A stretch of 64,000 nucleotides of DNA from an uncultured delta proteobacterium. GTDB lineage: Bacteria; Myxococcota_A; Polyangia; Haliangiales; Haliangiaceae. Numbering within the stretch: the stretch's first letter is position 1; each line of letters opens with the position of its first letter. Both the position numbers and the translations under genes were made by a program. The stretch covers positions 2,912,001-2,976,000 of the forward strand of contig CAWKDB010000010.1 in NCBI GenBank assembly GCA_963848295.1, given 5' to 3'. The notes beneath the pieces are model-generated. The model was given only the letters and a program-made list of their open reading frames with translations. It searched no databases and was not told the DNA's origin. Positions 10,753 through 63,866 of the stretch are shown one piece after another.

Positions 10753-10840
10753 GGGACGGTGTTCACCTTGTCAACTTGCGCTCCGGCGGAGGCTGAATAA
10801 TCTCAGCGCCTTAGTTGGGGACGGTGTTCACTTTGTCAAC
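10753..10840 (+). repeat. Paired 24-bp direct-repeat element, variant copies (10753-10775, 10817-10840)
   Basis: GGGACGGTGTTCAC(C/T)TTGTCAAC twice, period 65 bp, starts right after the TGA at 10752. Confidence 0.85.
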
Positions 10841-10881
10841 CAGCCGGCCAAGTGCCAGAGCTAGTCGCTGTAGGCTGACTC

Positions 10882-13743
10882 ATGTCCCTGTGGTCGCGGC
10901 TCGAGCGCAGGCTCGGCGATCTCGCCGGCGAGCTCGTGCTCGACGACTATCGCGACCAGCTCAACCAAGCGCGCGGGCTGATCGCGAAGGGCGACGTCAG
11001 GACCGCGATCGACGTGCTCGAAGCGCTGCTCGCGGTCAAGCCCGACCACGGCCAGGCGCTGATCGTGCTCGGTGAGGCCCGGCTCGCCCAGCGCGAGCCC
11101 GCCGCCGCACGCGACGCATTCGAGCGTGCACTCGCGATCCGCGGCGGTGACCCCGCAGCGCTCGTCGGCCTCGGGCTCGCGCTGATCGAGCTCGCGAGCT
11201 TCGAAGTCGCGATCAGCACTCTCGGCCGCGCGGTCGGCGAAGCAGCGGGTGATCGGTCGATCCTCGCGGAGGCCTATCGCGGCTTGGGCGTCGCCTGGCG
11301 CCGCCGCGGCGATCTCGACAAGGCGATTCGCGAGCTGCGCAAGGCAGTCACCGAAGATGGCGACGACCTCGATGCGCGCGCCGCACTCGGCGAAGCGCTC
11401 GTCGCCGATGGTGGCCCCTACGACGAAGCGCTGCGTCACCTCGAGCGCGCCGCGAAAGGCGATCGAGCACTCGCGCTCTACGGTCTCGGCCGGCTCGCGC
11501 TGATCGAAGGCGCACCCGCGACTGCCGCCGACCGGCTCGCGAATGCGCGCGCGTTTGCGGATGCTGACCCGACACCGCTCGGCGCGCTCGTGCGCTCGGA
11601 GATCTCGCTCGCGCAGGGCGACGCGGCCCTCGCCGACGGCGACGCGATCCACGCGCATGCGTTCTATCTCGAGGCGCTGCAAGCCGATCCTCGACGCGCC
11701 GAGGTTCACGCACGAATCGCGCGAGCGCATCGAGTGGTCGGTAGCCTCGACGCCGCGCTCACGAGCTACGATCGCGCCCTAGCCCTCGGCGGTGACGTCG
11801 CGGTGTTGCGCGATGCGGTCGACACGGCGCTCGCCGCCGGCGATGCCACGCGCGAGCTCGCATGGGGCAACGATCTGCTCGGCAAAGACCCCGAGGACTT
11901 GCGCGCGATCGTGGCGCGCGGAGCGGCGATGGCTCGCGAGCAGCCGAGCGCGGCGCGGGCGTTGCTCGAGCTAGCCTCCGCTCGCGACGACGTCGATGCG
12001 CATGTCGAGCTCGCCAAGCTCGCGCTCGCGCCCGGACCCGCTCACGATCCGAGGCTAGCCGCCGAGCACGCGAAAGCCGCGCTCCGAGTCGCACCCCACG
12101 ATCAGCGCGCGCGGCGCGTGCTCACCGACGCGCGGGCCGCCGAGCTGCCGCCGCCGTCGGGCTCGGACATCGCCGAGCTCGCGCAGTTTCTCGAGCGCGC
12201 CGTCGCCACCCGGCGCGAGCTCGGTCACTTCGTCGGCGAGGTCGCGCGTGCCGCGGCGAATCTCGATCAACCTTTGCTCGTGACCGTGATGGGCGAGTTC
12301 TCGAGCGGCAAGTCGTCGTTCGTCAATGCGTTCATCGGCGCGGACGTAGCGCCGACGGGAATCACCCCGACGACCGCGACGATCAACGTCGTGCGCTACG
12401 GCCACGAGCGCGGCGGCCGCATCCTCGGCGCCAGCGGTGGCACTGCGGTCGAGCTCGGCTGGGACGCCTTGATGGCGCACCTTCGCGCGCTGACACCGGA
12501 GGCCGCGCGCGCGATCGATCGGGTCGAGATCCTCGTGCCGCTGGCCCAGCTCGAGAAGATAAACATCGTCGATACGCCGGGCCTCAACTCGATCCTGCCC
12601 GAGCACCAAGCGACCGCTCGCGCGTTCATCGCACGCGCCGATGCAGTCGTGTGGGTGTTCACCGCGTCGCAAGGCGGCAAGGCGAGCGAGCAGAAAGCCC
12701 TGCGCTCCATCCGCGACGAGGGCAAGCGCGTGCTCGGCGTGCTGAACAAGGCCGACCAACTGTCCGACAGCGAGCGCGCGGAGGTCGTCGAGTTCATCAC
12801 GGCGACCCTGGGCGAGCTCGTCGAGGTCGTCGTTCCATTCTCGGCGCGCAAGGCGCTCGCGAGCAAGCGCGGAGAACCCGGCGCGACCGACGACGGCAAC
12901 TGGAGCGCGCTCCAGTCGGCGCTCGAAGAGCGCTTCTTCACGCAGGCCCGTCAGCTCAAGCGCGATGCGTGTGCGCGCGTGTTGCGCGGGGTCGTCAGCC
13001 AGGCGCGAACGGTGCTCGATGCCGATCGCACGCGAACCTCCGCCGCGAGCGATGCCGCGCGCGCCGGGCGCGATGAGCTCCTCGCCTCGGCGCGCAAGCT
13101 CGACCTCGAGCTCGTGCTCGGGGAACGTAAAGCGCTGTCGGACCATGCGAGCACCCTTTACCGCCGCGCCGCGCGCGAAGTGATCGACCTCGTGCGACCG
13201 CGTCGCCTGCCGTTCTCGTCACATACTGCCACCGCCGCCGATCGCGATTACGTGATCGCGTTGCTCGCGTCGGGTTACGAGTCGGCAATCGAAGCGGCGC
13301 GTGCGCGGGTCGCGAAAGAGCTCGCAGCTCGGGCTCGCGTGCTGCAGCCTGCGGCCCGCGCGATCGCGCAGGCGTCGGGGCGTGACGTTGTCGGCGACCT
13401 CCAGCGCGTCGCCGCGGACCAGATCGGCCTGGCGCTGTCTCGCGTGTTCGATCGCGCGCGGGCCTACGTGCGCGGCTACCTCGAGGGCGGTTACGTCGAG
13501 GCGTTCTTTCGCAATGACGTGCCGCGGCTCGAGCTCGCCGAAGATGCGGTCTATCACGCGCTCGTCCGCGGGGCCCCCGATCTCGATCGCGAGCTTTCCG
13601 AGCCACTGATCCGCGCCGCGACCGACGCGCTCACCGCGATCGCCGAACGGCTCGATCATTGGGGCGCGGTGATCGACGTTCAGGCTTTTGATCTCGACGC
13701 GGGGATAGGTCGAGCTCTCGAGATCGTCAGCTCTCGGTTATGA
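10882..13743 (+). CDS. TPR-repeat / dynamin-like GTPase fusion (DLP2)
   Basis: About 450 aa of TPR-like repeats, then GEFSSGKS, PTT, DTPG, NKAD. Confidence 0.88.
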   Translation: MSLWSRLERRLGDLAGELVLDDYRDQLNQARGLIAKGDVRTAIDVLEALLAVKPDHGQALIVLGEARLAQREPAAARDAFERALAIRGGDPAALVGLGLALIELASFEVAISTLGRAVGEAAGDRSILAEAYRGLGVAWRRRGDLDKAIRELRKAVTEDGDDLDARAALGEALVADGGPYDEALRHLERAAKGDRALALYGLGRLALIEGAPATAADRLANARAFADADPTPLGALVRSEISLAQGDAALADGDAIHAHAFYLEALQADPRRAEVHARIARAHRVVGSLDAALTSYDRALALGGDVAVLRDAVDTALAAGDATRELAWGNDLLGKDPEDLRAIVARGAAMAREQPSAARALLELASARDDVDAHVELAKLALAPGPAHDPRLAAEHAKAALRVAPHDQRARRVLTDARAAELPPPSGSDIAELAQFLERAVATRRELGHFVGEVARAAANLDQPLLVTVMGEFSSGKSSFVNAFIGADVAPTGITPTTATINVVRYGHERGGRILGASGGTAVELGWDALMAHLRALTPEAARAIDRVEILVPLAQLEKINIVDTPGLNSILPEHQATARAFIARADAVVWVFTASQGGKASEQKALRSIRDEGKRVLGVLNKADQLSDSERAEVVEFITATLGELVEVVVPFSARKALASKRGEPGATDDGNWSALQSALEERFFTQARQLKRDACARVLRGVVSQARTVLDADRTRTSAASDAARAGRDELLASARKLDLELVLGERKALSDHASTLYRRAAREVIDLVRPRRLPFSSHTATAADRDYVIALLASGYESAIEAARARVAKELAARARVLQPAARAIAQASGRDVVGDLQRVAADQIGLALSRVFDRARAYVRGYLEGGYVEAFFRNDVPRLELAEDAVYHALVRGAPDLDRELSEPLIRAATDALTAIAERLDHWGAVIDVQAFDLDAGIGRALEIVSSRL

Positions 13744-13753
13744 TGCGCCGATC

Positions 13754-14464
13754 ATGCCCCGCACCGGCAAGCGTTCGCCCACGCGGTTCCCGAATCGACT
13801 GACGCTCGGCATCGACGAAGCCGGGCGTGGCCCGACGATCGGCCCGATGGTAATGGCCGCGGTCGCGCTCGATTCGAAGCACGCTGCGGCGCTGACCCGC
13901 AAAGGCCTACGCGACTCGAAGTCATATGGCGCCGGCGACGACGCGCATGCGATCCGCAGCGAGCTCGCGCTCGAGATCCGCTCGAGGGCGACATTCGTGA
14001 TGGCGGTCGAGATCGAGCATCACGAGATCGATCAGCGCGTCTGCCGCGGTGAGCTCAATGTCCTCGAGCGCGAGCATGCGACGGTCCTCATCGAGAACGC
14101 GCCGACCTGTGACAAGATCATCGCCGACGGCAAGCGCATGTTCGCGGCGCTCGCGCTGCGCTTCGAGCAGTTCGTGTCGGTCGACCACGCCGAGGACGCG
14201 CACGCCGCGGTTGCGGCGGCTTCGGTGATCGCGAAGGTCATCCGCGACGATCGGTTCAACGCGATCCGCCGCCGCTACGAGCCCGAGCTCGGCCCGATCT
14301 CCGGCGGCGGCTACTCGAACGCCGCGACGAGCCGCTGGCTACGCGCCTACGTCGAGCGCCACGGCTGCTTGCCAGATGAAGCTCGTAAGAGTTGGCCGTA
14401 CCCGCACCTCGCCGATCTGCTCGGCCACGTCCGCCCGCTCGAGCCGCAGCTCACGCTCATCTGA
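13754..14464 (+). CDS. rnhB: Ribonuclease HII
   Basis: GIDEAGRGP, LRDSK, VAAASVIAKVIRD. Confidence 0.9.
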   Translation: MPRTGKRSPTRFPNRLTLGIDEAGRGPTIGPMVMAAVALDSKHAAALTRKGLRDSKSYGAGDDAHAIRSELALEIRSRATFVMAVEIEHHEIDQRVCRGELNVLEREHATVLIENAPTCDKIIADGKRMFAALALRFEQFVSVDHAEDAHAAVAAASVIAKVIRDDRFNAIRRRYEPELGPISGGGYSNAATSRWLRAYVERHGCLPDEARKSWPYPHLADLLGHVRPLEPQLTLI

Positions 14465-14470
14465 TCGGCA

Positions 14471-14524
14471 GAGCTCGATGGGTCGCACGAGCTCGACGGC
14501 TCGCACGAGCTCGACGGCTCGCAC
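14471..14524. repeat. 18-bp tandem repeat x3 (GAGCTCGAYGGSTCGCAC)
   Basis: Read directly, intergenic. Confidence 0.85.
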
Positions 14525-14534
14525 GGCACCCTAA

Positions 14535-14631
14535 GTTGACAAAAGAGACAGCGTCCCCAAGAAAGCGGCTCGAAATCATCGGGTTAGACGCCGGGCTCTC
14601 CCGCGCAAGTTGACAAAAGAGACAGCGTCCC
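14535..14631 (-). repeat. Paired 24-bp direct-repeat element (14535-14558, 14609-14631)
   Basis: GTTGACAAAAGAGACAGCGTCCC(C) twice on + strand, period 74 bp; abuts anti-sigma stop codon. Confidence 0.95.
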
Positions 14632-15509
14632 TATTTCGTCGCGCACTTGGCGATGGCTGGGTCGGCGGCGAGCTGTCTCGACTGGGGACCGCCGACTCGC
14701 GCGCTGATCGCGTTCGCCTCGGCGCAATCGCCCCGCGCTGCAGCGGCTCGCGCCCGGGCGACGAGATCGTCGGGAGCTAGCGTCCGGTCGCGCGCGACTG
14801 GGCTCTTTGTCGCGTCTTTCGGCGCGGGCAGCCGGGGAGATTGCTGTTCGCTGTCATCCAGACCAGCCGCGTCGGTCGCGGGACTCTCGGTGTCAGGTGC
14901 GAGCTGCGGCGTCGACCGTGGCCGCGGTGCGTACGCCGGCTTCTTCGGCGGCGTGCTGTGGTGTTCCGTGGGGGCGAGTTGCGGCGTCGATGGCGAGCCC
15001 ACACTCCCAGTCCCGTCGGCAGGTGACGTTACCGGTGCGGTCTCGGTCTCGTGTTGGGCCTCCCCGCCAGTTACCGCTTTGTCGCTCTGCCTTTGCGATG
15101 TCGCGGCGCCGTTGCCACCCGGCGCAGAAGACACGCCCGATGGCGTGGCGGTCGATCGATCGATTTCGCCCGACGGCGCAGCAGCCGGAGTTTCCTTCGT
15201 TCCGCTGGTCGGTGCGCTCGGAACGATCATCGGGCCCGACGGAGCGATGCCATCGCCGCGACGGCCGATCGCGAGCGCACCGCCGATCACGACGAGCAAG
15301 GTCGCGAAAGCGAGGACGGGCGGCTTGCGCAGTTGCGCGAACAGCCGCCGCCACCACGGGGGGGGCGCTACGGCTTCGGCCCTCGCCCTTGCGGCCGCAA
15401 TCAGCTCGGCGATCCCCGCACTCGGTGGATCCTCGTCTGGCAGCGACAGCCAAACCGAGCGCAGCGCGCGAAGCTGCGCGTCTTCGGGCTCGGTGTCGTC
15501 GTCGTTCAC
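14631..15509 (-). CDS. Putative anti-sigma factor (single TM, low-complexity periplasmic part)
   Basis: Overlaps ECF sigma stop; N-terminal helix, PWWRR then TM. Confidence 0.7.
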   Translation of the reverse strand: MNDDDTEPEDAQLRALRSVWLSLPDEDPPSAGIAELIAAARARAEAVAPPPWWRRLFAQLRKPPVLAFATLLVVIGGALAIGRRGDGIAPSGPMIVPSAPTSGTKETPAAAPSGEIDRSTATPSGVSSAPGGNGAATSQRQSDKAVTGGEAQHETETAPVTSPADGTGSVGSPSTPQLAPTEHHSTPPKKPAYAPRPRSTPQLAPDTESPATDAAGLDDSEQQSPRLPAPKDATKSPVARDRTLAPDDLVARARAAAARGDCAEANAISARVGGPQSRQLAADPAIAKCATK

Positions 15510-16108
15510 GGCGCAGCCTTGGCCAGATCCTTATATTCGTCGAGCTCCAGCCGCAGCTTCTCGAGCGCGTAACGCATGCGGCTCTTCACCGTGTTCTCAG
15601 GCACGCCGACGACATCTGCGATCTGCTTGAACGGCAGGTCGAGAAACTCGCGCATCAAGAAGACCTCGCGCTGATCTTCGGACAACGTCGCGATCGCACG
15701 CTGCATCGTCTCGTGCAGCTGCTTGTTGACGCTCTTGCGATCGCTGGCCATTTCATTCGACGGGAGGACATCAAGCAGAGTGCCGCTCTCTTCGCTCGCG
15801 TCCATCGGGGCATCGAGCGACGCGTGCTTTCTATGTTTGCGTCTCCTCGTCTGGTCAACGCACAGGTTGCGCGCAATGGTGTAAAGCCACGTCGTGAACT
15901 TGGCCTGGCGCTTGTAAGCCTCCGCGCCTTTGATGACGCGCATGAAAGCTTCTTGCAGCAGATCTTCGGACGTCTCGCGATCGCCGACGAACCGCAAGAT
16001 GAAGTTGAACACCGGCTTGCGATGCCGAGACAGCAGTACCTCGAAGGCGCGAACCTCGCCCTTCTGGTACATGACCATGAGGTCTTCGTCGGCTGTGTCG
16101 TTGAACAT
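15506..16108 (-). CDS. ECF RNA polymerase sigma factor
   Basis: EDLLQEAF, FTTWLYTIARNLC, IADVVGVPENTVKSR. Confidence 0.93.
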   Translation of the reverse strand: MFNDTADEDLMVMYQKGEVRAFEVLLSRHRKPVFNFILRFVGDRETSEDLLQEAFMRVIKGAEAYKRQAKFTTWLYTIARNLCVDQTRRRKHRKHASLDAPMDASEESGTLLDVLPSNEMASDRKSVNKQLHETMQRAIATLSEDQREVFLMREFLDLPFKQIADVVGVPENTVKSRMRYALEKLRLELDEYKDLAKAAP

Positions 16109-16167
16109 TACGGTGTTACGGCCCGGGCGACACTAACACGAAGGTAAACGTCCAAAGGCTAGACCGC

Positions 16168-17053: not shown

Positions 17054-17151
17054 GGTGACGCTGTCTCTATTGTCAACTTGCGGGTCAGCGGGCTCGCGGT
17101 AACCCGGGGCAATCACGCGGGTTCGCTGGGGACGGTGTCTCTTTTGTCAAC
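17054..17151 (+). repeat. Paired 24-bp direct-repeat element (17054-17077, 17128-17151)
   Basis: Period 74 bp; second copy lies inside the rsmA 3' end. Confidence 0.95.
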
Positions 17152-18069: not shown

Positions 18070-18202
18070 GTTGACCAAAGAACCTTCGGTCCCAGAGGAC
18101 CCCAAGTTGACAAAAGAGACAGCGTCCCCAGCGAAGCCGCGTGATTGCGCCGAGTTAGCGGGAGCCCCGCCGGGCGCAAGTTGACAATAGAGACAGCGTC
18201 CC
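18070..18202 (-). repeat. Paired 24-bp direct-repeat element (18106-18129, 18180-18202) plus degenerate copy 18070-18093
   Basis: Period 74 bp; abuts tsaD stop codon. Confidence 0.95.
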
Positions 18203-19222
18203 TCATCGGGGGAGCGGCGCCGTCGGCGTCGCTTCGAGGGTCAGGTCGGCTCTTTCGCCACGGCGCAGCCGGTGGTAGCCGGCCGCCGCGATCATCGCGG
18301 CGTTGTCGGTGCATCGCTGTGGCGGCGGAATGTAGACGCGAAAATCACCTTCGGCACCCGCCGCGCGCAAAGCTGCCCTCAACCCCGAGTTTGCCGCGAC
18401 GCCACCACAGACTTGCACGTGCGCGAGCCCCAGCCGCCGCGCCGCGCGCCGCGTCTTGCGCACGAGCACCTCGACGATCGCGGCTTGATAGCTCGCGCAC
18501 AGGTCCGCGAGCGGCTGGCCGTCGGGCACGCCGTTGGCGCGTACCCGATGGAGCAGCGCAGTCTTGAGCCCGCTGAACGAAAAGTCGTCGCCGTGCTCGC
18601 TCGCGGTCATCGACCTCGGGAATTCGATCGCGCGCGGATCGCCGGCCTGCGCGATCCGATCGAGCACCGCGCCGCCGGGATAGCCGAGGCCGAGCAGCTT
18701 CGCGCCTTTGTCGAACGCCTCACCTGCCGCGTCGTCGCGAGTGGCGCCGAGCTCGAATACGCGACCGTGATCCTCCACGCGAACGAGCGAGGTGTGACCG
18801 CCCGAAACGATCAACGCGAGATGCGGCATCGGTGGAGGAGCGGGTTCGAGATAGATCGCCGAGAGGTGGCCCTCGAGATGATGGACGCCGACGAGCGGCT
18901 TCCCCGTCACCCAGGCGATCGCTTTCGCGGTCTGCATACCGACGAGCAGCGCGCCGATCAGCCCCGGTGCGTTCGTCACCGCGATGCCGTCGATATCGGC
19001 GAGCGAGTAGCCCGCGCGGTCGAGCGCGCTTTGCACGACCGGCACCACATTCTGGACATGCGCGCGCGACGCGAGCTCCGGCACGACGCCACCGTATTTC
19101 GCGTGTACGTCGTGCTGCGACGCGACGACATCCGAACGCACGACGCTTCCGTCGACGACGACCGCCGCAGCGGTCTCGTCGCACGAGCTCTCGATGCCGA
19201 GCACCGTGTTCACGGGCACCAC
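18203..19222 (-). CDS. tsaD: tRNA N6-threonylcarbamoyltransferase
   Basis: GIESSCDET, VPELASRAH, HHLEGH, SGGHT, TDNAAMIA. Confidence 0.97.
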   Translation of the reverse strand: MVPVNTVLGIESSCDETAAAVVVDGSVVRSDVVASQHDVHAKYGGVVPELASRAHVQNVVPVVQSALDRAGYSLADIDGIAVTNAPGLIGALLVGMQTAKAIAWVTGKPLVGVHHLEGHLSAIYLEPAPPPMPHLALIVSGGHTSLVRVEDHGRVFELGATRDDAAGEAFDKGAKLLGLGYPGGAVLDRIAQAGDPRAIEFPRSMTASEHGDDFSFSGLKTALLHRVRANGVPDGQPLADLCASYQAAIVEVLVRKTRRAARRLGLAHVQVCGGVAANSGLRAALRAAGAEGDFRVYIPPPQRCTDNAAMIAAAGYHRLRRGERADLTLEATPTAPLPR

Positions 19223-27486: not shown

Positions 27487-27631
27487 ATTGACCATGGAGA
27501 CAGCGCCGGCAGCTCCACGCCACGCGCGACCCAAGTTGACAATAGAGACAGCGTCCCCAGCGAACCCGCGCGATTACCGTGATTTGCGGCGCGCTACACG
27601 CAGCCCAAGTTGACAATAGAGACAGCGTCAC
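27487..27631 (-). repeat. Paired 24-bp direct-repeat element (27535-27558, 27609-27631) plus degenerate copy near 27487-27507
   Basis: Period 74 bp; abuts mnmE stop codon. Confidence 0.95.
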
Positions 27632-28936
27632 TACTTGCCGATGCAGAAGCGGGCGAAGACTTCATCGAGGACTCGGTCGCCGACCTCGATGCCTCGGAGC
27701 TGGGCTAGCGCGGCGACGGCGGCACGGAGCTCGAGCGCGAGGATCTCGGGCGGCGCGCGCACGGAGGCCGCGGCGAAGGCGTCTCGTGCGGCGAGGGCGG
27801 CGGCGTGCTGGCGCTCGGTCGTGACGAACACGTCTTCGTTGCCTTCGCGATCGCCGATGCCGGCGACGTCGAGCACGCGCGCGATCAGCTCGTCGAGGCC
27901 AAAACGGGTCACCGCCGAGGTGGCGAGAGCACCGGCGGTCGCGCCTCCGAGGTCGGCCTTGTTGCGCACGACGATCGCGCGGCGACCGAACCTCGAACCG
28001 TCATCCCACGACGACGCGCCATCGTTGACGACGACGACGACATCGGCCGTCGCGACCCGTGCTCGCCGAGCGCGATGCCACGCGCTTCGACGGGGTCGTG
28101 AGTGTCGCGCGAGCCGGCCGTGTCGATCACCGTGACGGCGATGCCGTGCCAAGCTGTCTGGACTTCGACGTAGTCACGCGTCGTACCGGGCTCGGCGGCG
28201 ACGAGCGCTCGCTCGCTGCCGATCAGCGCGTTGAGCAGCGACGACTTGCCGACGTTGACCGGCCCGACGAGCGCGACCGCGAGGCCTTGCCCGATCGCAC
28301 GCGACCGACGAAAGCCGTCTGCGAGCGCCGCGCAGCGGTCGCGCAATGCGGCGATCTCGGTTGCGATCCAACTGCTCGCTCGGTGGTTGGAGATCGTCCT
28401 CCGGAAAATCGATGCGGCCCTCGACCTCGGCGAGCACCACGAGCGCTCGCCGCTCGAGCTCGATGACCGCGTCGCCGAGGCGGCCTTCGAGGTTGCGCTT
28501 GCGCGAGTCGCCAGGCCCGCTCGCTGCCGGCGGCGATCACGCCGAGCAGGGCTTCGGCGCGGACCAGGTCGAGCTTGCCGCCGAGCACCGCGCGACGCGT
28601 GAACTCACCGGGCTCGGCGAGCCGAGCTCCGCGCTCGACCACCGCCGCGAGCAGTCGCCCGAGGTTGTGCGAGCCGCCGTGGCCGTGGAGCTCGGCGACG
28701 TCCTCGCCGGTGAACGACGCCGGCGCCCGCATCGCGAACGCGAGCACCTGATCGATGCGCTCGCCCGCGGCATCTTTCGCCCAACCTAGGCGAACGCTGC
28801 GATCGAGCGACGCCTCGGCAACCCCGAGCGCGTCGGCCGCGATCGCGATCGCACGCGGACCGCTGAGCCGGACGATGCCGACTCCACCCGCGCCCGCCGC
28901 GGTCGCGATCGCCGCGATCGTGTCCGTCTCGCTCAC
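27631..28936 (-). pseudogene. mnmE: tRNA modification GTPase MnmE with three frameshifts (~28496, ~28370, ~28060; possibly sequencing errors)
   Basis: [58 protein letters not shown] spread over four ORF segments. Confidence 0.9.
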
Positions 28937-32297: not shown

Positions 32298-32503
32298 GGC
32301 TACTCTCCGACGTTTGCGGAGGGCGATCGATACTCAACCCGACTCGGGGTGTCAAGCCGATGCGTGTGCGTCCAGCGGATCTGCGCGGCGCGATTTCGCT
32401 CCCGTCACACCGCTGTTTCTCGACGCTGCCGGGAGTTCAATTGTTCGTCTTTTGCGCTTGCGCTTTTCGATCGCCATCTGTTACCAACGGCGAGTTTTCC
32501 GCT

Positions 32504-32560
32504 TGTGGACAAGTCCTAACGACTGGCCATGGGAGGAGCTCCAGAAGGAGTTGTGAATAA
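32504..32560. promoter_or_regulatory. DnaA boxes upstream of dnaA
   Basis: TGTGGACAA 32504-32512 and TGTGAATAA 32552-32560 (reverse complement TTATTCACA). Confidence 0.75.
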
Positions 32561-32641: not shown

Positions 32642-34072
<1,431 letters not shown>

Positions 34073-34335
34073 ATGCGATGTGGATGACCCTGAGGGAAGA
34101 GCTGTGGACCAGCCGTGGGCCGTCGGAGCTCCCTCGGTTGTCCACACCTACAGAGCATGTCATCCATGACCAGGCAGAACGTCAGACCGTCGTGGTGCTA
34201 TCGCGGAAATCTCAGGAAGAACGCTTCGCTCCCGCGATGTACACATGTTCACAACCATCTACTAGATCTGATTCTAAGAAGATTTTATCTCTTAAAGAAC
34301 AGATAGAGCGAAGAGCAAAGACGAGATAGGCGAGG
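34073..34335. other. Probable oriC: DnaA-box cluster and AT-rich unwinding element
   Basis: Box-like 9-mers at 34079, 34103, 34138, 34237, 34245, then AT-rich tract ~34254-34310 between dnaA and dnaN. Confidence 0.8.
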
Positions 34336-34341
34336 GTGACC

Positions 34342-35439
<1,098 letters not shown>

Positions 35440-35442
35440 CGC

Positions 35443-36540
35443 CTGCACGTCTCGCTGCTGTCCGTCTCCGGGGTGCGCAACCTCGCGCCCGTGCAGCTCG
35501 TGCCGCGCGCGCGGTTCAACGTGTTCGTCGGCGACAACGGCCAGGGCAAGACGAACTTGCTCGAGGCGCTCTACGTGGTCGCCGCGCTGCGCTCGTTTCG
35601 AACCGCGAAGCTCGCGGACCTCATCGCGTTTGGACAGCCCAAGGCCAGCATTGCCGCGAGGGTCGAGCGCGGAGGTATGACGCGCCTCTACGAGGTCGAC
35701 CTCGAGCCCGGCGGTCGCAGGGTCCGGCTCGACGACAAGGCGGTCAGGCCGCTCGCGCGTTACTTCGGCGGGTTCAACGTCGTCGTGTTCACCCCGGAGG
35801 ATCTCGCGTTGCCGAGAGGCGCACCCGGTGACCGCCGCAAGTTTCTCGACCGCGCGGTGTTCAACGTCCAGCCGGAGTTTCTCGCAACCGCGCTCGACTA
35901 TGACAAGGCGCTCAAGCAACGCAACGCGCTGCTCAAGATGGCCGGGCAGGGCGCGCTGACTCCGGCGCGGCTCGACGAGCTGCTCGCAGGCTACGATCCC
36001 CAGCTCGCCCGGCTCGGCGTCGCGGTCGCGCAAGCGCGGGCCGAAGTCATCGCCCGGCTCGTGCCCGACCTCGCAGCCTCGTTCGCGGCGATCACCCGCA
36101 GCGGGCTGGTCGCCAACGCGCGCTATGTCTCGGAGGTCGCGGGAGCGACTCCGGACCAGGTCGAGCAAATGCTGCGCGACGGCAGAGCGCGAGATGTCGC
36201 CCGCCAGGCGACGTCCACAGGCCCGCACCGCGATGATGTCTTGCTGGAGCTCGACGGGCGCGAAGCCGGGAGTTTTGCGTCTCAGGGCCAGCTGCGCGCG
36301 ATCATGCTCGCTTGGAAGACCGCCGAGCTCGTCATGCTGGCCCGGGCCCACGGCGATCCGCCGATCCTGCTACTCGACGACGTGTCGAGCGAGCTCGATC
36401 CGAGCCGCAACGCGTACCTGTTCGAGCACGTCGCTTCGCACGCGGGTCAGTGCTTCATCACGACGACCCACGCCGACCATGTTCTGGTCTCCGAAGACCG
36501 GGCCAACTACCGGATCGAAAGCGGCAAGATTTCCTCGTAA
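35443..36540 (+). CDS. recF: DNA replication/repair protein RecF (start CTG 35443 or GTG 35473)
   Basis: GDNGQGKTNLLEA, GPHRDD, SQGQ, LLLDDVSSELD. Confidence 0.95.
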   Translation: MHVSLLSVSGVRNLAPVQLVPRARFNVFVGDNGQGKTNLLEALYVVAALRSFRTAKLADLIAFGQPKASIAARVERGGMTRLYEVDLEPGGRRVRLDDKAVRPLARYFGGFNVVVFTPEDLALPRGAPGDRRKFLDRAVFNVQPEFLATALDYDKALKQRNALLKMAGQGALTPARLDELLAGYDPQLARLGVAVAQARAEVIARLVPDLAASFAAITRSGLVANARYVSEVAGATPDQVEQMLRDGRARDVARQATSTGPHRDDVLLELDGREAGSFASQGQLRAIMLAWKTAELVMLARAHGDPPILLLDDVSSELDPSRNAYLFEHVASHAGQCFITTTHADHVLVSEDRANYRIESGKISS

Positions 36541-36583
36541 AATCCGGCACATGATCCTTCTTGCAGGGTGAGGTTCGTGGTAA

Positions 36584-39043
<2,460 letters not shown>

Positions 39044-39046: not shown

Positions 39047-39219
39047 GGTGACGCTGTCTCTATTGTCAACTTGGGTGCCGAGCGCGCCTCTGTAACTGTC
39101 GACAATCGCTTTGGGTTCTCTGGGGACGCTGTCTCTATTGTCAACTTGTAGGGTTCTTTGGGCGGTTCTTGGGGTTCTTGGGGACGCGGGTTCTTGGGGA
39201 CGCTGTCTCTATTGTCAAC
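39047..39219 (+). repeat. Triple 24-bp direct-repeat element (39047-39070, 39122-39145, 39196-39219)
   Basis: Periods 75 and 74 bp; begins 3 nt after the gyrB stop. Confidence 0.95.
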
Positions 39220-43449: not shown

Positions 43450-44985
43450 TCAATGACGCGTCGCGTATTCGACGATCGTCGCGACGGCAAAGCCGGTCCC
43501 GCCCTTCGGCGCGGAGGGACGCGAGGTCGACGTCGACGCCGGTCCCGCGATGTCGACATGCAGCCACGGCGTATCTTTGGCGAACGTCTTGAGGAACAAG
43601 CCGGCGGTGATCGCGCCGCCGAACCGATCGCCGGTGTTGCGCATGTCCGCGATCGGGCTCTTCAGCTGCTCGCGCAGGCGCGCGCTCAACGGCAGCCGCC
43701 ACATGTCCTCACCGGTGCGATCCGCGACCGACATCCAGTTGCGAGCCAGGCCCTCGTGATCGCTCATGACGCCAGCGGTGTACGGGCCGAGTGCGACCAT
43801 GCACGCGCCGGTCAGCGTGGCGAAGTCGAACATCTCGTCCGGCTTGATCTTCGTGCGGACGTAGGTGATCGCATCGCCGAGCGTGAGCCGGCCTTCCGCG
43901 TCGGTGTTGTTGATCTCCACGGTCGTCCCATCCATCGAGATCAACACGTCGCCGAGCTTGTACGCGCGCCCTGACACGAGGTTCTCGCACGCTGCGGTCA
44001 CCGCGTGGACTTCATGCTCGGAGCCGAGCGTCGCGATCGCGTCCATCGCGGAGATCACCGCGGCGGCTCCCGACATATCGACCTTCATGTCCTCCATCGA
44101 CTGCGACGGCTTGAGCGAGTAGCCACCGGAGTCGAACGTCACGCCCTTGCCGATGAAGCAGATCCGTTTCTTGGGTTTCTTCGTCGGTTTGTACGTGAGG
44201 TGGATGAACTTCGACTCCTGATCGGAGCCCTGGCCGACCGCGAGGAACATGCCCATTCCGAGCTCAGCACATTGCTTCGCACTCAATACGGTCACCGCGA
44301 GCGCACCCTTGTGCTTCTTCGCAATCGCCTGCGCATCGGCCGCGAGCGCGGTCGGCGTGATCACCGCGGCGGGCTCGTTGATCAAGTCGCGCGCGTGGTT
44401 CACCGCTCGCGCGATCACCTGGCCGCGCTCAATCGCCGCGGTGAAAGCCTTCGCCTGGGTGGCGGTCGGCTTCTTGCCCCGCGCGTCGGTGAGGATGCCG
44501 AAGCTCTTGAGCGTCGCCGGCTTCTTCGCGTCATCGCCGGTGAGGTAGCGCGCGAACTTGTAGCCGCCTTCGACGACACCCTCGGCCGTCATCTGGACGA
44601 GCAGCGCCTCGCGGTTCGCGCCAAACGCAGGCAGGACGAACGCGAGCGATGTGGCGCCGACCTTGTTCGCGAGCTGCAAGACGGTCGCGGCGACGTCGCG
44701 GATGTGGGGATTGGTGAACTCGGACTTCGCCCCGCCACCGATCACGACGACGCGCTTGGCCGGCAGCCTGCCGGCGGTGAACAGCGTGATCGTCTGCGAG
44801 CTCTTGCCTTCGAACGACTCGGACGCCGCGATCTCGGCGAGCGAGCCACCAAGCGCCTTGTCGACCACTTTGAAGACAGGGTCTTTGGCGGGGGCGCCGA
44901 ATGTGACGAGCGCCAACATATCGACCTTACAATCCAGCACCGAACCCGCGAGATGGACGATCTGAAGGCCGCTATTGTCGTTCAT
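43450..44985 (-). CDS. pepA: Leucyl aminopeptidase (M17)
   Basis: GKGVTFDSGG, MKVDMSG, NTDAEGRL, HVDIAG. Confidence 0.95.
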   Translation of the reverse strand: MNDNSGLQIVHLAGSVLDCKVDMLALVTFGAPAKDPVFKVVDKALGGSLAEIAASESFEGKSSQTITLFTAGRLPAKRVVVIGGGAKSEFTNPHIRDVAATVLQLANKVGATSLAFVLPAFGANREALLVQMTAEGVVEGGYKFARYLTGDDAKKPATLKSFGILTDARGKKPTATQAKAFTAAIERGQVIARAVNHARDLINEPAAVITPTALAADAQAIAKKHKGALAVTVLSAKQCAELGMGMFLAVGQGSDQESKFIHLTYKPTKKPKKRICFIGKGVTFDSGGYSLKPSQSMEDMKVDMSGAAAVISAMDAIATLGSEHEVHAVTAACENLVSGRAYKLGDVLISMDGTTVEINNTDAEGRLTLGDAITYVRTKIKPDEMFDFATLTGACMVALGPYTAGVMSDHEGLARNWMSVADRTGEDMWRLPLSARLREQLKSPIADMRNTGDRFGGAITAGLFLKTFAKDTPWLHVDIAGPASTSTSRPSAPKGGTGFAVATIVEYATRH

Positions 44986-46117: not shown

Positions 46118-46264
46118 GGGGACGGAGTACCTCTTGTCAAGCCGTGGGACCTTCGCGCCTGAGCTGGGGACGCTGTCTCTTCTGTCAACTTGCCAAGAAA
46201 ACGGAAACGTCGATCTCAGCAAGATCGCTGAGGTTGTCGTGGGGACGCTGTCTCTTTTGTCAAC
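46118..46264 (+). repeat. Paired 24-bp direct-repeat element (46166-46189, 46241-46264) plus degenerate copy 46118-46141
   Basis: Period 75 bp; lies between divergent genes. Confidence 0.93.
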
Positions 46265-47647: not shown

Positions 47648-47744
47648 GTAGACAAAAGAGACAGCGTCCCCAGAGATCCTCAGAGATCTCGATGAGATCG
47701 GGCTAGCGCTTTTTCGGCAAGTGGACAAAAGAGACAGCGTCCCC
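47648..47744 (-). repeat. Paired 24-bp direct-repeat element (47648-47671, 47721-47744)
   Basis: GT(A/G)GACAAAAGAGACAGCGTCCCC twice, period 73 bp; overlaps the WYL gene 3' end. Confidence 0.93.
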
Positions 47745-56446: not shown

Positions 56447-56461
56447 ACGGGACGTCCCCAG

Positions 56462-58746: not shown

Positions 58747-60587
58747 TGAGGGTGGCGATGAAACGGATCGAGCGTATCGGCCGGATCGATCTTATCTGAC
58801 GGCTTCGAGTCGGTCTTGTTATCGGCGGGCTTGTCGACCGGTTTGGCGCCGACCTTGTCGGTCTTGTCGGCGCCGGGCTTCTTGTCGTGCGCCTTCGCTA
58901 CCGGGTGGCTGACGCTCGGGTGCGACTTGGGGTGATCGTCCTCGGCGACCACGCGATCGAGCGTGACCGCGAACGCGTGCTTGTCCGCGGTGAGATCGAC
59001 CTCGACGGGCTTGTCGAGATAGCCGGCGCTGCGCACGACATAGGTCCGGCGATCGGTCGGACCTCCGTCCTTCAGGTCGACCTCGAACGAGCACGGCGTG
59101 TTGCACAGCTCCGCCGAGTGCCCGTCAGCGTAGACACCGCCGCTCGGCAACGAGTCGAACCGTAACGAGATCATCGTCGGTGGCGCAGGCGTCGGTGTCG
59201 GTATTGGCGTCGGCGTCGGCGTCGGAACCGGCGTCGGAACCGGCGCCGGCATCGGCGTCTGCGTCTCGGCCACCGGCGCTGCCACATGCGCCGACTCTCC
59301 TCGACTCGCGTACAGCACCGCTCCAGTCACCCCGAGCGCCACCGCGATCGCACCTCCCGCGAGCCAGATCCACACCGGGGTCGGTGGTGGCGGCGCCGGC
59401 GTCGCCTGGCTGACGTACATCGACTGGTACCCGGTCGACGGGTGGAGCGCGGAGGCATGCAAGCTCGACGGCAACATCGGGTGCTGGCCGGACAATGCGT
59501 AATTCGGCGGGCGGGTCTCGACCTGCGCGCCGAGCATGTTGAGCAAGCCGTCGCGCAGCTCGAGGATGTGGCCGAAGCGCTGGTCCGGGTCCTTCGCGAG
59601 GCAGCGCATGATCAGCGCCTCGAGCCTCGCATCGACGTGCTGGCCACCCTGGGTCTGGCGCGGAGGCACCGGATGCTCGGTGAGATGCTTGCGGACGTAC
59701 TCGCCGAACGAGCGACCCTTGAACATCGGCTGGCCGCAGAACAGCTCGTACATGATCGCGCCGATCGAATAGATGTCGGAGCGCTGATCGAGCGCCATGC
59801 CGCCGGCTTGCTCGGGAGACATGTACGCCGGCGTGCCGATCACCGAGCCCGCTGCGGTCTGAAACCCGACATCCTCGTCGTCACGATTCACGAGCTTCGC
59901 GACGCCGAAGTCGAGCAACTTGACGAGCTCCGCGCCATCGGAGGTCGGGACCACGATCACGTTGTCGGGCTTGAGATCGCGATGGATGACGCCGACCGCG
60001 TGCGCTGCCCCCAAGCCGTCGCAGATCTGGACGAGCACGGCGAGCGCGCGCGGGAGATCGATCCCGGTGCGCGCCCAGCGCCCGAGGCTCTGGCCCTGGA
60101 GCAGCTCCATGATGATGAACGTCGTGCCGTCGTCGAGCTCGATGAAGTCGGTGACGTCGACGATGTTGCGATGGCGAACGCGGTTGACCGTCTTCGCTTC
60201 TTGGAAGAACCGCAGCACGGCATCGCGCCGGCGCGCGTAGTCGGCGCGCAGCAGCTTGAGCGCGACCTCGCGGCCGAGCTTGATGTGCTCGGCGCGATAC
60301 ACATAGCCCATGCCGCCTTTGCCGAGCAGCTCGCCGAGCCGATAGCTGCCAAGCACGTTGCCGATCCGATCTTCGGGGGCGTCGGTCGAGGCGCGCGGTC
60401 TCGGCGGTGGCCGGGTCGGCGCACGCTCGACGATCGGGCGTTGCCGGCCGCTCGGCGACTCGACGCGAGTCGGTTCGTCGCCGGTGCCGACCGCGAGCGA
60501 CGGGTGCTCGTTCGGATCGTCGTCGAACGCGTCGGCCTCGAGGGACAGCGACTGCGTCGGATCGCGGTGGCTGTCGCGCGTCGTCAT
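58743..60587 (-). CDS. Membrane Ser/Thr protein kinase
   Basis: LGKGGMG, VALK, HRDLKPDN, DFG, GTPAYMSPEQ; TM; PEGA-like tail. Confidence 0.95.
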   Translation of the reverse strand: MTTRDSHRDPTQSLSLEADAFDDDPNEHPSLAVGTGDEPTRVESPSGRQRPIVERAPTRPPPRPRASTDAPEDRIGNVLGSYRLGELLGKGGMGYVYRAEHIKLGREVALKLLRADYARRRDAVLRFFQEAKTVNRVRHRNIVDVTDFIELDDGTTFIIMELLQGQSLGRWARTGIDLPRALAVLVQICDGLGAAHAVGVIHRDLKPDNVIVVPTSDGAELVKLLDFGVAKLVNRDDEDVGFQTAAGSVIGTPAYMSPEQAGGMALDQRSDIYSIGAIMYELFCGQPMFKGRSFGEYVRKHLTEHPVPPRQTQGGQHVDARLEALIMRCLAKDPDQRFGHILELRDGLLNMLGAQVETRPPNYALSGQHPMLPSSLHASALHPSTGYQSMYVSQATPAPPPPTPVWIWLAGGAIAVALGVTGAVLYASRGESAHVAAPVAETQTPMPAPVPTPVPTPTPTPIPTPTPAPPTMISLRFDSLPSGGVYADGHSAELCNTPCSFEVDLKDGGPTDRRTYVVRSAGYLDKPVEVDLTADKHAFAVTLDRVVAEDDHPKSHPSVSHPVAKAHDKKPGADKTDKVGAKPVDKPADNKTDSKPSDKIDPADTLDPFHRHPQ

Positions 60588-60664
60588 CCGCCCTGAAGCA
60601 GATTGTACGATCCATCTTCATCGCGCACAACCAATGATTCCGCGTGGTTGTGATCGGAGTCGCG

Positions 60665-61300
60665 CTAGGGTGGGGTGCATTCACCAAGCACGTCGAGCGC
60701 GTTGGTGATCGCGAGCTTCACTTGGTCGACGGTCTCGTGCTGGAGCCGTGCACGCAGCGGAGCGATGCCGTCGGTATCGCAGAGGTCGCGCAGCGCGTTC
60801 GCGGTGCTCGCGCGGATGTCCCGGCTCGGGTGATCGAGCAGCCCAGCCAACGCCGGCTCGTCGTCGGCGACTTGCAGCGGCCCGAGCGTCTCGATCGCGG
60901 CGCGCAGCAGCAGCAGATCGGACCCGCCGTTCGCCGGTAGGTCCTCGGCTCCGAGCGTCGTGATCAGCGTGGTCAACGCGACATGGCTCGGATCGGTGTC
61001 GGCGCACGGTGGCGGATCGTCGGGCAGCGGGCAGTATTGGCCGAGCGCGTGGATCGCGCGCAACCTCACGCCGACGTCGTTCGTCGTGTCGGCGCTGATC
61101 GTCGCGAGCGACTGCGCGGTCGTCGCCGCCGAGCCCATGAACGCGGCGTTGAGCTCGACCGTCGTCGGTGCGCTGTCGAGAGCACCGAGCGTATCGAGCA
61201 CGCCTTGCGGCAAAGGCGGGGTCTCGGTGCCGTGCGCGATCGCGACGAAGATCAGCGCTGCGCCGAGCGGCACGATCAGCGGCAGCTTGCGCGCGCTCAT
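60665..61300 (-). CDS. Exported HEAT-repeat protein
   Basis: Signal/TM; VRLRAIHALG, IRASTANAL repeats. Confidence 0.75.
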   Translation of the reverse strand: MSARKLPLIVPLGAALIFVAIAHGTETPPLPQGVLDTLGALDSAPTTVELNAAFMGSAATTAQSLATISADTTNDVGVRLRAIHALGQYCPLPDDPPPCADTDPSHVALTTLITTLGAEDLPANGGSDLLLLRAAIETLGPLQVADDEPALAGLLDHPSRDIRASTANALRDLCDTDGIAPLRARLQHETVDQVKLAITNALDVLGECTPP

Positions 61301-62853
61301 CGCAGCACCGCGCTGCGCCGGAGGATGTCGCCTTGCTCGGTGCTGATGTCGTCGCCGCCGAACTCCGAGAAGTACATGAGGTTCGCGCTCGACGTGTCGC
61401 TATCGTCGATCGGATCGGTGTGGACGAGATCGAGCTCGAGGTTGTCGTACAGCCCGAGGTAGCGCGCGGCTTCGTGCGCGACGAGCCGCGACAGCTGATC
61501 CCACGACCGGTAGCACAACGTATCGAGACCGATGACGATGCCCGATTGCGCCGTGCCCGGGAGCCCGCCAGGTCCGGGGTTCGGGCCGAACGCTTCGAGG
61601 CCGATCGGCGACAGTGTGCGGACAAAGAACACGTCGAGGCCGGTGGTGTGCGAGCCGAGCGCGAGCAGCTGGCCGGCGTTCGAGACGTCGAGCCCGTCGA
61701 GCTCGGGATGGTCGAGGATGTCGTCGTAGTCCACCGTGCCCAGGTTGAGCCCGACGTGCGCGAGCACGGTGCGCAGCGTCCCCAGGAAGTCGGTCTGGAA
61801 GAACGCGGCGGACTGCGCGAGCTGCGCGGTCAACGCGCCGCCGCCGAACTGAGCCGAGCACGGATGATCTTGGAAGTTGAGGAAGTGGAGATGCAGATCG
61901 AGCGTCGCACCGTGGTCGAGCTTGACGACCGCGGTCATCCGGGGCGTCTCGGTGCCGACGGTGGTCGGAAACGGCGCGCGCAACGACGACACGTGCAGCG
62001 CATAAGCACCCTCCAGCAACGGCTGGGACGGCGCCGACAACGGGTCGGTAGGGGCCGACGGCATCGCGAGCACCGACTGGCCGAAGCCGGGTTCGTGGCG
62101 GACGAGGTTCGAGTAGTAGTCGCCGTTCGGGTCGACGAGCACGACGCCTTGATTATCGCCGGTCAGCGTGTGGACCGGCGACACGACCTTCGTCGCGCCG
62201 ACTTGCTGCGCGGCATCGTCGATCTGGAACGTGACCGCGACGCTATACGCGGTGCTCGGGACCGGCAACAGCACGTCGGCTTCTGGGCCGTCGACCGGGA
62301 TCGCCCAGGTCAATGAGCCGGTGGCCGGGATGCAACCCCAGAACGGGTAGCCGATCGCTTCGACCCGCGGGATCACCGCGCAGGTCTGGCCGAGCGCGCA
62401 GTCGCGCGAGTTGTTCGACGGCGAGCACAGGTCGACACAATGGCCGAGCGCGCATGTGCCGTTGCGACATTCATCGTCGGTCGCGCAGGTCGAGCCATCT
62501 GCGGCGCCCGAGTTTTCGGCGACGCAGCTCGCGGTCAGCGTCTGCGGCATGTTGTCGTTGAGGTTTGTCGTGCCGTCGAGCTCGCACGACAAGCCGACCT
62601 CGCACTCGGGCTCGCCGCTGCACGAGGCGCCGAGTCCGGCGGCCGACTGAGTGCATGTCCCGTCGCCGGCGCAGGCGTAGCCATCGCCGCAGTCGGGGGA
62701 TCGCTGGCACCGCGCGACGCACACGTTGCCTTGGCACTGCAGCGAGCTCTCGCAATCGCCGTTGCCGCCGCACGAATCGCCGAGCCCCCCGGAGCCAGCC
62801 GGGCAGCCGGCCAGCGCGGCGACCATCAGCGCGAAGAGTGAGCGGTATCGCAT
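61297..62853 (-). CDS. Cys-rich lipoprotein with degenerate zincin-like domain
   Basis: LAGC lipobox, Cys repeats, AHEAARYLGLYD and NLMY Met-turn. Confidence 0.75.
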   Translation of the reverse strand: MRYRSLFALMVAALAGCPAGSGGLGDSCGGNGDCESSLQCQGNVCVARCQRSPDCGDGYACAGDGTCTQSAAGLGASCSGEPECEVGLSCELDGTTNLNDNMPQTLTASCVAENSGAADGSTCATDDECRNGTCALGHCVDLCSPSNNSRDCALGQTCAVIPRVEAIGYPFWGCIPATGSLTWAIPVDGPEADVLLPVPSTAYSVAVTFQIDDAAQQVGATKVVSPVHTLTGDNQGVVLVDPNGDYYSNLVRHEPGFGQSVLAMPSAPTDPLSAPSQPLLEGAYALHVSSLRAPFPTTVGTETPRMTAVVKLDHGATLDLHLHFLNFQDHPCSAQFGGGALTAQLAQSAAFFQTDFLGTLRTVLAHVGLNLGTVDYDDILDHPELDGLDVSNAGQLLALGSHTTGLDVFFVRTLSPIGLEAFGPNPGPGGLPGTAQSGIVIGLDTLCYRSWDQLSRLVAHEAARYLGLYDNLELDLVHTDPIDDSDTSSANLMYFSEFGGDDISTEQGDILRRSAVLR

Positions 62854-62926
62854 CGCGATGCGATTCCCGGCACAGACGCGCGAGGAGCCGCACACCGAGT
62901 ATATAATGTCGCCGCCTGGGGGAATC

Positions 62927-63772
62927 ATGCGTTTCGTCACGAGCTTGACCGTGTTGTTCATCGCCGGAACTGCCGTCGCGGGGCCCGCGCTCGACGATGA
63001 CAAGAACGCCACACCGACCCCGGCGCCCGCGCCGGCTGCGTCCGGCACGGACCCCACCGCCGCTGGAGGCGGAGCGGGCACCGCTGCACCGACGACCGAG
63101 GCGCCTAGCCCCTTGGCCGAGAAAGTCTCGTACGGCTTCGACATTCGACTGCGCAGCGAGTGGGTGCCGCAGGCGATCCTCGGCCTGTTCATGAAGTCGT
63201 CGCCGGGCGGTGCTCAGAGCGCAGCGATCGGCGCCGATTTTGTACGCCGGCGTGGCGACACCGAGCTCGCGTTCGGCATGGAGTACGAGCAGATCAACCC
63301 CAAGCAGGGCGTCTACGTTCAGAGCAACAGCAACGTCGCGGACGGCGACACCGTCGACTACATCCTGTCGCCCGAGAATGCCGGCAGCAACTTCGGCTGG
63401 GTCACGTTCGAGTTCACGTTCATCGGCCACAAGCCGTTCAACAAGTACGTCTCGTTCCGCTACGGCATCGGCGCTGGCCTTGGCGTCCTGACCGGAGGTC
63501 TCTATCGGATCGACACGCAGTGCGCGGCCGGCACGACCGACGCGACCGCGGCGACCGGCTGCGTTCCCCCGCCATACGGTCAAACCGGTACCGTCTCGCC
63601 CGACCACCCCGGCGATCCCGAGCCGGGCAAGTACGACCTGCCGCCGGTCTTCCCGGTCTTGAACGCCCTCGTCGGCTTCCAGTTCCACCCGGTCGAGCAC
63701 ATCGTCATCAACCTCGAAGGCGGCCTCCATACGTTACCCTTCGTCGGCCTCTCGGTCGGCGCGATGTGGTGA
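62927..63772 (+). CDS. Putative outer-membrane beta-barrel protein
   Basis: Signal peptide, alternating hydrophobic strands, C-terminal Trp. Confidence 0.7.
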   Translation: MRFVTSLTVLFIAGTAVAGPALDDDKNATPTPAPAPAASGTDPTAAGGGAGTAAPTTEAPSPLAEKVSYGFDIRLRSEWVPQAILGLFMKSSPGGAQSAAIGADFVRRRGDTELAFGMEYEQINPKQGVYVQSNSNVADGDTVDYILSPENAGSNFGWVTFEFTFIGHKPFNKYVSFRYGIGAGLGVLTGGLYRIDTQCAAGTTDATAATGCVPPPYGQTGTVSPDHPGDPEPGKYDLPPVFPVLNALVGFQFHPVEHIVINLEGGLHTLPFVGLSVGAMW

Positions 63773-63866
63773 CGCTGTCTCTATTGTCAACTTAGGTCGA
63801 ATCTCGCGTTCTGGAGATCGCGGTAATTACGAGCGTTTCGCCGGGGACGCTGTCTCTATTGTCACC
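63768..63866 (+). repeat. Paired 24-bp direct-repeat element (63768-63791, 63843-63866)
   Basis: Period 75 bp; fills the whole gap between two convergent stop codons. Confidence 0.95.

Follow-up and report, generated by a model that had tools for sequence, protein, structure and literature searches.

What kind of element is a 24-bp motif that recurs in direct pairs around the replication origin of a bacterial chromosome, and how do its many copies stay alike? The question is raised by a 64,000-nucleotide stretch of the genome of an uncultured delta proteobacterium of the Haliangiaceae (GenBank assembly GCA_963848295.1, contig CAWKDB010000010.1, positions 2,912,001 to 2,976,000), which we call the window and which corresponds to C10:2912001-2976000 of the source genome, labelled G000 (assembly 85% complete). 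A first-pass annotation of the window had described the motif as pairs around ~50-bp spacers at nine loci, and had proposed an undescribed non-autonomous element or a chromosome-wide protein-binding or RNA-processing system. We found that each of two motif types has a cognate HUH/Y1 transposase gene flanked by doublets of that type, and that the system is known in kind, new in form. Our preferred reading, which we consider fairly probable, is that the doublets are non-autonomous ends of the TIRtron type, which the cognate enzyme would keep through nicking and strand transfer between existing copies.

Two families of paired repeats

At three mismatches or fewer, the motif gave 17 matches in the window, with the coordinates and strands first reported, and none in 100 shuffled sequences. 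The 19 good copies counted originally are these 17, here called type A, plus two copies of a second family, type B (consensus GGGGACGGTGTTCACTTTGWCAAC). The two B copies form the pair first placed at 10753/10817; that pair is real, but it starts at 10752, lies six to seven positions off the proposed consensus and has a period of 65, which leaves a 41-bp spacer rather than one of ~50 bp.

Genome-wide, the two main motif types were A (period 73–76) and B (period 64–65). Within four mismatches of either consensus there were 227 copies (155 A and 72 B) in 109 clusters. Direct pairs made up 70 of these, 22 had inward-facing copies, 14 were singles and three were direct triplets; 79 clusters held two copies and the largest held five. 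A position weight matrix (PWM) scan, the check recommended by the first-pass annotation, returned 228 copies; canonical direct doublets (57 A and 25 B) account for 163 of these, and a control on the reversed genome returned no match. Mostly unpaired copies at random spacing, the outcome named in advance as speaking against the element, is therefore not what this genome contains. Among same-strand neighbours less than 130 bp apart, AA pairs fell at 73–76 in 56 of 69 cases, BB pairs at 64–65 in 25 of 27 and CC pairs at 65–66 in all eight. Two minor motif families were also seen (for example at C10:689031 and C10:2826317), one with a GGAGGA core that forms doublets of 65–66 and one with a GGAGTA core that occurs as singles and inverted pairs. 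One doublet was present with near-identical flanks at both C7:5240 and C10:3595297 of G000, possibly a strain variant or an assembly duplicate.

Each of the two main motif types flanks its own HUH/Y1 gene

Inspection of the open reading frames (ORFs) between close clusters revealed two HUH/Y1 genes outside the window, a type A gene at C10:2679446-2680393 (minus strand) and a type B gene at C10:1101402-1102322 (plus strand); on either side of each gene stands an inward-facing doublet of the matching motif type. A HUH/RAYT gene flanked by the motif was among the partners that the first-pass annotation had suggested looking for, and two exist; its idea of a non-autonomous element is supported. 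Its statement that terminal inverted repeats (TIRs) are lacking proved wrong genome-wide, because the transposase locus has doublets as its inverted ends, and two-ended clusters make up 22 of the 109.

The A and B genes encode proteins of 316 and 307 aa that are 54% identical, and tblastn found them to be the only two of their kind in the genome. Both matched NF047646 (REP-associated tyrosine transposase; E values 5e-11 and 1e-10) under its cut-off, and matches to Y1_Tnp and Bac_DnaA_C were likewise under the curated cut-offs (PF08299, E value 0.001, one gene). The catalytic motifs read NHIH/SHIH and YIHNNP, and residues H59, H61, Y117, N121 and P122 were invariant in 67 of 67 homologs. Profile searches related the N-terminal half to TnpA-REP (4ER8, E value 3e-4) and the C-terminal third to DnaA domain IV chains (E value 4e-5). 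An AlphaFold model (pLDDT 94) has a helical C-terminal domain, and its first Foldseek match was again 4ER8 (E value 2e-6), followed by IS200/IS605 transposases. The genes thus carry a DnaA-domain-IV-like C-terminal helix-turn-helix (HTH). The genome also encodes two IHF/HU-family proteins.

A search with PF01797 missed the cognate genes. Its nine matches were considered as candidates and rejected, since they belong to another Y1 family and no A or B cluster lies within 11 kb of them. This second Y1_Tnp family occupies nine motif-free loci, some of them broken (e.g., C10:3445968, C10:3040575 and C2:1374309). Upstream of one of its genes lies a conserved non-coding stretch of ~110 bp, which has 12 BLAST matches genome-wide, several of them away from any such gene.

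Anatomy of the doublet

The absence of REP-type hairpins, noted from the start, was borne out by folding: no stable single-stranded fold was obtained (−0.4 to −2.3 kcal/mol; z-scores −0.5 to +0.7; doublet z near 0), and a hairpin with a G-T wobble stem gained no support. The spacers are AT-richer than the genome (0.58 GC), and some of their features are positional. In B spacers, WATCAR-N4-TTR, given as the IHF consensus in the available text of PMC2709558, is matched at 6.4 of 9, in one register and 3 nt before the inner copy, and none of 200 shuffles reached the best-match score. The inner copy follows a conserved CT. Since position 1 is variable chiefly in outer copies, we place the outer boundary of the doublet at the head. 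Helical phasing was considered, as the A and B periods lie roughly one turn apart, and was rejected because the periods of 60–62 in many relatives do not fit.

Copies were mostly intergenic, with 16 of 226 lying inside genes called with a home-made gene caller. Where a head faced the end of a gene, it lay no more than 5 nt from the stop codon in 44 of 61 cases, compared with 12 of 53 for tails; the null expectations for 0–5 nt were 4% per base and 21% per gap. Of the 29 outer A copies that have T at position 3, nine contribute the TGA from their own sequence. Several genes, among them rsmA and amtB, lie between inward-facing doublets, and this putative gene capture can follow from the stop-codon preference.

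Could the doublets act as RNA, as terminators, processing sites or CRISPR-like repeat-spacer units? Their place at gene 3′ ends and their scarcity inside called genes would fit. However, Rfam at gathering thresholds gave no match, no stable fold was seen, and the repeats are tied to a gene for a DNA-cleaving HUH enzyme. Nor are there arrays: with two copies in most clusters and five in the largest, and with spacers that are positionally patterned and orthologous between species rather than acquired, the first-pass view that this is not CRISPR stands, and its RNA-processing idea is left without support. We regard an RNA element as very improbable.

Among the matches listed, contigs from sequencing runs contained no spacer-deleted joint. 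Two X1 contigs match two doublets exactly and may stem from the source sample. The sequencing runs listed included none of RNA.

Orthologous sites in a sister species

The sister species G112 carries both genes (77% and 82% identical to those of G000). Flanks were available for 46 G112 clusters, and 37 of these had an identifiable place in G000; 28 of the 37 sites were filled there and nine were empty. Size-selected contigs gave ten filled and six empty sites, and in the other direction (G000 sites in G112) 11 filled and one empty; long contigs may under-represent repeats. Sixty extra G112 contigs (1.02 Mb, 0.73 Mb alignable), leftovers after the motif-bearing contigs had been picked, added one cluster. 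Five of the nine window loci were covered in G112, and all five were filled.

At 17 orthologous A doublets, position 13 read G in G112 (33 of 34 copies) and T in G000 (30 of 34), in each species the letter seen at the ends of its own gene. Agreement between orthologs at positions 3 and 16 was at chance (17 of 34, 17.8 expected, and 19 of 34, 18.1 expected); third codon positions of the two species are 0.78 identical, and the binomial p values were 9e-5 and 1e-3 at an assumed agreement of 0.8, and 0.011 and 0.057 at 0.7. Within doublets, agreement was above chance at position 13 (51 of 57, 42 expected) and position 23 (42 of 57, 32 expected). A-spacer identity was 0.64 at orthologous sites and 0.55 elsewhere. 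In G000, the surviving G letter was found in two of 66 copies near the origin versus 22 of 90 elsewhere (clusters, 2 of 30 versus 15 of 46, p 0.01). At one site, between outer flanks shared by the two species, G112 has type B and G000 a minor type. Because sites persist while the motif changes, conversion in place is favoured over birth and death of copies, and because, in the size-selected contigs, only one of 12 G000 sites is empty in G112, new sites were rarely gained over the time in which most A motifs changed. Six orthologous B doublets gave a different picture: their spacers were 0.76 identical versus 0.54, position 16 agreed in 11 of 12 copies, and rare variants were shared.

These data bear on a more ordinary explanation, REPIN- or MITE-like copy-and-paste by the same enzyme, in which the mobile unit would be a two-ended mini-element or the whole doublet, solo doublets would be decayed copies, and apparent rewriting would be re-insertion at old sites or host gene conversion. 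Two-ended clusters exist (the 22 of 109 noted above) and are common among the G072 clusters listed; nine of 37 G112 sites are empty in G000; and the spacer of the window doublet at 17054 is closer to that of its neighbour than to that of its own ortholog. TnpA-REP also recombines REP substrates in vitro, according to the available text of PMC3333891. Against this, hardly any paralogous spacers are near-identical (above 0.8 identity in 2 of 1596 A-spacer pairs), and the size-selected G112 contigs show the single empty site among 12. A length of 24–29 bp is, moreover, short for RecA-type conversion. We consider copy-and-paste unlikely, and continue with transfer between existing copies as the preferred reading.

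Examples suggest trimming on the head side of the doublet. Counts of anchor distances do not single it out, as the anchor-to-head distance differs in 19 of 31 cases and the anchor-to-tail distance in 13 of 19.

Position relative to the origin

The window spans dnaA-dnaN-recF-gyrB and the skew minimum, with the cumulative GC-skew minimum of C10 at window position 44436 and one DnaA-box match at 32552. The repeat is densest around this origin: 24 of 52 A clusters lie within 250 kb of it, compared with 5.3 expected. Local hopping from the genes was considered and rejected as weaker than origin proximity, since 11 A clusters lie within 250 kb of the gene and 24 within that distance of the origin. 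In relative G011, the one family mapped had no origin enrichment, with one locus within 250 kb of dnaA among 81 matches (dnaA there lies 247 kb from a contig end).

Enrichment of this kind would fit chromosome-organising or regulatory sites of a domesticated protein, selected site by site, with the motif tracking specificity through independent point mutations. The protein's DNA-binding domain, which is DnaA-like, the persistence of sites between species and the single-copy gene, which sits at one locus in 13 of the 30 loci examined, agree with such a role. It is harder to reconcile with the invariant catalytic residues, with the same substitution being needed at more than 100 separate sites, with positions 3 and 16 being randomised between orthologs although both letters are tolerated, and with the G011 result; many genus members, furthermore, do without both the gene and the doublets. 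We rate this explanation as improbable, and less likely than copy-and-paste.

Distribution among relatives

Homologs of the cognate proteins were found in 60 of 90 genus genomes at an E value of 0.001 or less, 35 of them at 1e-50 or less; named relatives with the protein are mostly Kofleriaceae and other Myxococcota. Thirty genus loci were fetched, 29 with enough flank. An automatic search found inverted GG[GT][AT]C-headed repeats on either side of the gene at 28 of the 29; at 16, both flanks had doublets, with periods of 54–74 in 15 and 112–115 in one. Beyond the first six to eight bases the motif varies by species, and the exact A/B pattern was present in only one of 60 relatives sampled, so the motif is nearly species-specific. 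Of the loci from the wider phylum, 22 were analysable; such inverted repeats were found at about 15 and doublets on both sides at only two, which makes the doublet form largely particular to this clade.

By a generic doublet pattern, genomes with a close homolog had at least ten dispersed doublets in 19 of 34 cases, versus 4 of 54 for those without one; these counts leave out the unpublished genomes G010 and G075 (19 of 35 and 4 of 55 with them), on which nothing else reported here depends, and kin are not independent. Protein similarity and motif similarity were correlated (Mantel 0.43, 38 loci), no more strongly for the HTH than for the HUH domain. Thirteen of the 30 loci share both neighbours, which we take from short peptide patterns to be argB-like and CoA-transferase-like, yet carry differing motifs that are alike at both ends within a genome. 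The argB/CoA-transferase locus of G000 holds no element (the argB flank gave no match).

Relation to described systems

The first-pass annotation had called the element undescribed. Its kind is known; its form we did not find in the literature searched, which covered few subscription papers. In their available text, Di Nocera 2013 (PMC3733652) describes TIRYT genes, TIRtrons, a GGGGWSAS head that is given for only some of the TIRs, and dispersed TIR families that occur as singles, dimers and groups, and Quentin 2018 (PMC6006769) describes a TnpA-Y1 subclass 2.1 with a DnaA-like HTH and no REPs beside it, tentatively equated with TIRYT. Subclass 2.1 is reported there as the largest RAYT-like group, present in 14.9% of strains. 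The available parts of Bertels 2017 (PMC5581495) give RAYT group 1 a mean of 12 flanking 16-mer copies, and those of a preprint (bioRxiv 10.1101/2021.07.10.451892) state that RAYTs stay at one locus. In the features compared at the sequence level, our system fits TIRYT/TIRtron, TnpA-Y1 subclass 2.1 and RAYT group 1, which would be one and the same, and it appears to work like a RAYT-REP system.

The likeness to TIRYT and subclass 2.1 comprises the HUH and Y---NP core, the C-terminal DnaA-like HTH, repeat-specific genes, and inverted non-hairpin repeats with a GGGG-W-S head on both sides of the gene; as in TIRYT, dispersed repeats occur as singles, dimers and groups. Compared with GGGGWSAS, the head here is GGGGACGS, which fits at seven of eight positions and has G rather than A at position 7; some homolog loci carry exact GGGGACAG or GGGGTCAG. 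Unlike the TIRtron as described in the available text, each end here is a fixed-period direct doublet, and solo doublets dominate. There are ~228 copies, as opposed to the "moderately abundant" TIR families of TIRtrons and the 12 16-mers of group 1, and the accessible descriptions of TIRtrons, subclass 2.1 and group 1 contain no mention that we found of stop-codon abutment or in-place motif change.

The system also resembles REP, REPIN and BIME elements with their RAYTs of groups 2 and 3 (E. coli TnpA-REP, 4ER8) in that a single-copy, vertically kept Y1 enzyme is flanked by a repeat that is species-specific, intergenic and located at gene 3′ ends. The linker between two repeats of BIME-1 contains an IHF site, according to the available text of PMC3333891, and the B spacers likewise carry an IHF-like site. 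In contrast to REP and REPIN, there is no hairpin and no GTAG tag in the logos, the enzyme has an extra DNA-binding domain, and direct pairs outnumber inverted ones (70 versus 9) where the REPIN is an inverted doublet. With IS200/IS605 (TnpA-IS200) the catalytic fold is shared, but the signature is Y---NP instead of Y---Q, and there are no subterminal hairpins, no tnpB and no multicopy gene. The 22 two-ended clusters are, like MITEs, short and non-coding; unlike MITEs, the system has a HUH rather than a DDE enzyme, no target-site duplication was seen at the few empty sites, and most copies are one-ended. The system is not a REP/REPIN, a CRISPR or an RNA element.

Within that literature, nothing was found on fixed-period direct doublets or in-place rewriting for this gene class. 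The features without a counterpart there are hairpin-less, fixed-period direct-doublet ends with an IHF-like site in the B spacers, outer ends that abut stop codons, and persistent sites with concerted change of the A motif. In its available text, PMC6006769 found no REP-like substrate for subclass 2.1 and left the link to TIRYT open; the present genus offers a clear substrate set. Enzymes and motifs are matched at many of its loci, the geometry of the doublet is defined, and one genome holds two cognate pairs, so that binding, cleavage and cross-specificity are directly testable. The comparison of orthologous sites is relevant, too, to the long-standing question of what keeps dispersed repeats in bacteria alike.

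Proposed mechanism

Under our preferred reading, the HTH would bind both direct copies as double-stranded DNA, with IHF or HU probably bending the spacer, and one strand would be nicked at or near the G-rich head. The free 3′-OH or tyrosine-linked end would then be transferred to another motif copy, and host replication or repair would resolve the transfer. The usual outcome would be that an existing motif or doublet is overwritten by another copy; rarer ones may be partial duplications, site loss, new sites, and head-adjacent deletions that halt at a neighbour's stop codon. The gene itself would stay single-copy and be inherited vertically. Double-strand recognition, bending, nicking and strand transfer are proposed from the anatomy of the doublet and from the HUH chemistry described for TnpA-REP in the available text of PMC8266576 and PMC3333891. 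Such a process would explain the persistent sites, the concerted motif change, the agreement within doublets, the partial duplications, the stop-codon abutment and the occasional loss.

Several observations weigh on the other side. The in-place comparison covers one species pair and 1.39 of the 7.5 Mb of G112, the rarity of near-identical A spacers means that recent whole-doublet copying is rare, and rewriting is seen only for A, type B having the look of vertical inheritance. Overall, spacers are no less similar at greater distance (Mantel p 0.3), and the few empty sites have unclean junctions. The IHF signal of A spacers is weak (5 of 200 shuffles). Stutters at heads (15 of 227) exceed those at random positions (96 of 5000) but not clearly those at a downstream control (8 of 228), and, with extents anywhere between 0 and 9 nt, they do not point to a fixed cut site. 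With the pattern used, 15 of 34 gene-bearing genomes have fewer than ten doublets and four without a close homolog have at least ten, and the minor motif families have no cognate gene in the 85%-complete assembly.

More tentatively, we suggest as a possibility that a domesticated HUH enzyme reads a double-stranded, IHF-bent direct doublet in a relaxosome-like manner and mainly rewrites its own existing sites in place. If so, 100–200 chromosomal sites would switch sequence together as enzyme specificity drifts, outer ends would trim flanking DNA as far as the next stop codon, at times remodelling the C-termini of proteins, and this would be a site-rewriting system, not a transposon.

Features of the window

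The type B doublet (10752..10840, plus strand, period 65) begins with the last base of the TGA of the upstream dynamin-like gene, and the same site is filled in G112. The type A doublet at 14535..14632 (minus strand, period 74), also filled in G112, overlaps with its head the TAG of the ORF at 14631-15509 (minus strand). Two A doublets of period 74 face each other across rsmA. That at 17054..17151 (plus strand) has a spacer 0.82 identical to that of the other, 1 kb away, versus 0.46 to that of its own G112 ortholog; that at 18106..18203 (minus strand) overlaps the tsaD stop with its head and is filled in G112. In the type A doublet at 27535..27632 (minus strand, period 74) the head overlaps a stop codon at 27631, and the site lies outside the fetched G112 contigs.

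Outside the element, dnaA-dnaN-recF-gyrB occupies 32642..39043 (plus strand). Just upstream of dnaA, at ~32360-32380, G112 (L044:3749) has a small two-ended minor-motif element that G000 does not have. Three nucleotides past the gyrB stop lies an A doublet (39047..39145, plus strand, period 75), whose site in G112 is filled as a doublet. The triplet first described here does have its third copy, at 39196, but a low-complexity stutter with a partial motif head, and not a normal spacer, precedes it; stutter and third copy (39146..39219, plus strand) are absent in G112.

A doublets at 46166..46264 (plus strand, period 75) and 47648..47744 (minus strand, period 73) face each other. A degenerate copy at 46118..46141 (plus strand) belongs to another, minor family (GGAGTA core), and the weak match at 27487 is probably due to chance. 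Between convergent stop codons at 56449..56459 lies a scar of two fused motif heads, where G112 has a three-copy, two-ended element. Fused-head scars as a family were considered and rejected, since among the few pattern matches only this case looked intergenic. The last A doublet (63768..63866, plus strand, period 75) contains, within its outer copy, the TGA that ends the ORF at 62927-63772.

Both rsmA/ksgA (17113-17151) and a WYL-domain gene (47703-47744) read in frame through one motif copy, the inner one in the case of rsmA/ksgA, and stop inside the spacer, so the element supplies C-terminal residues of both. The type B doublet lies between two tandem bacterial dynamin-like genes (8980-13743), the second of which has N-terminal TPRs.

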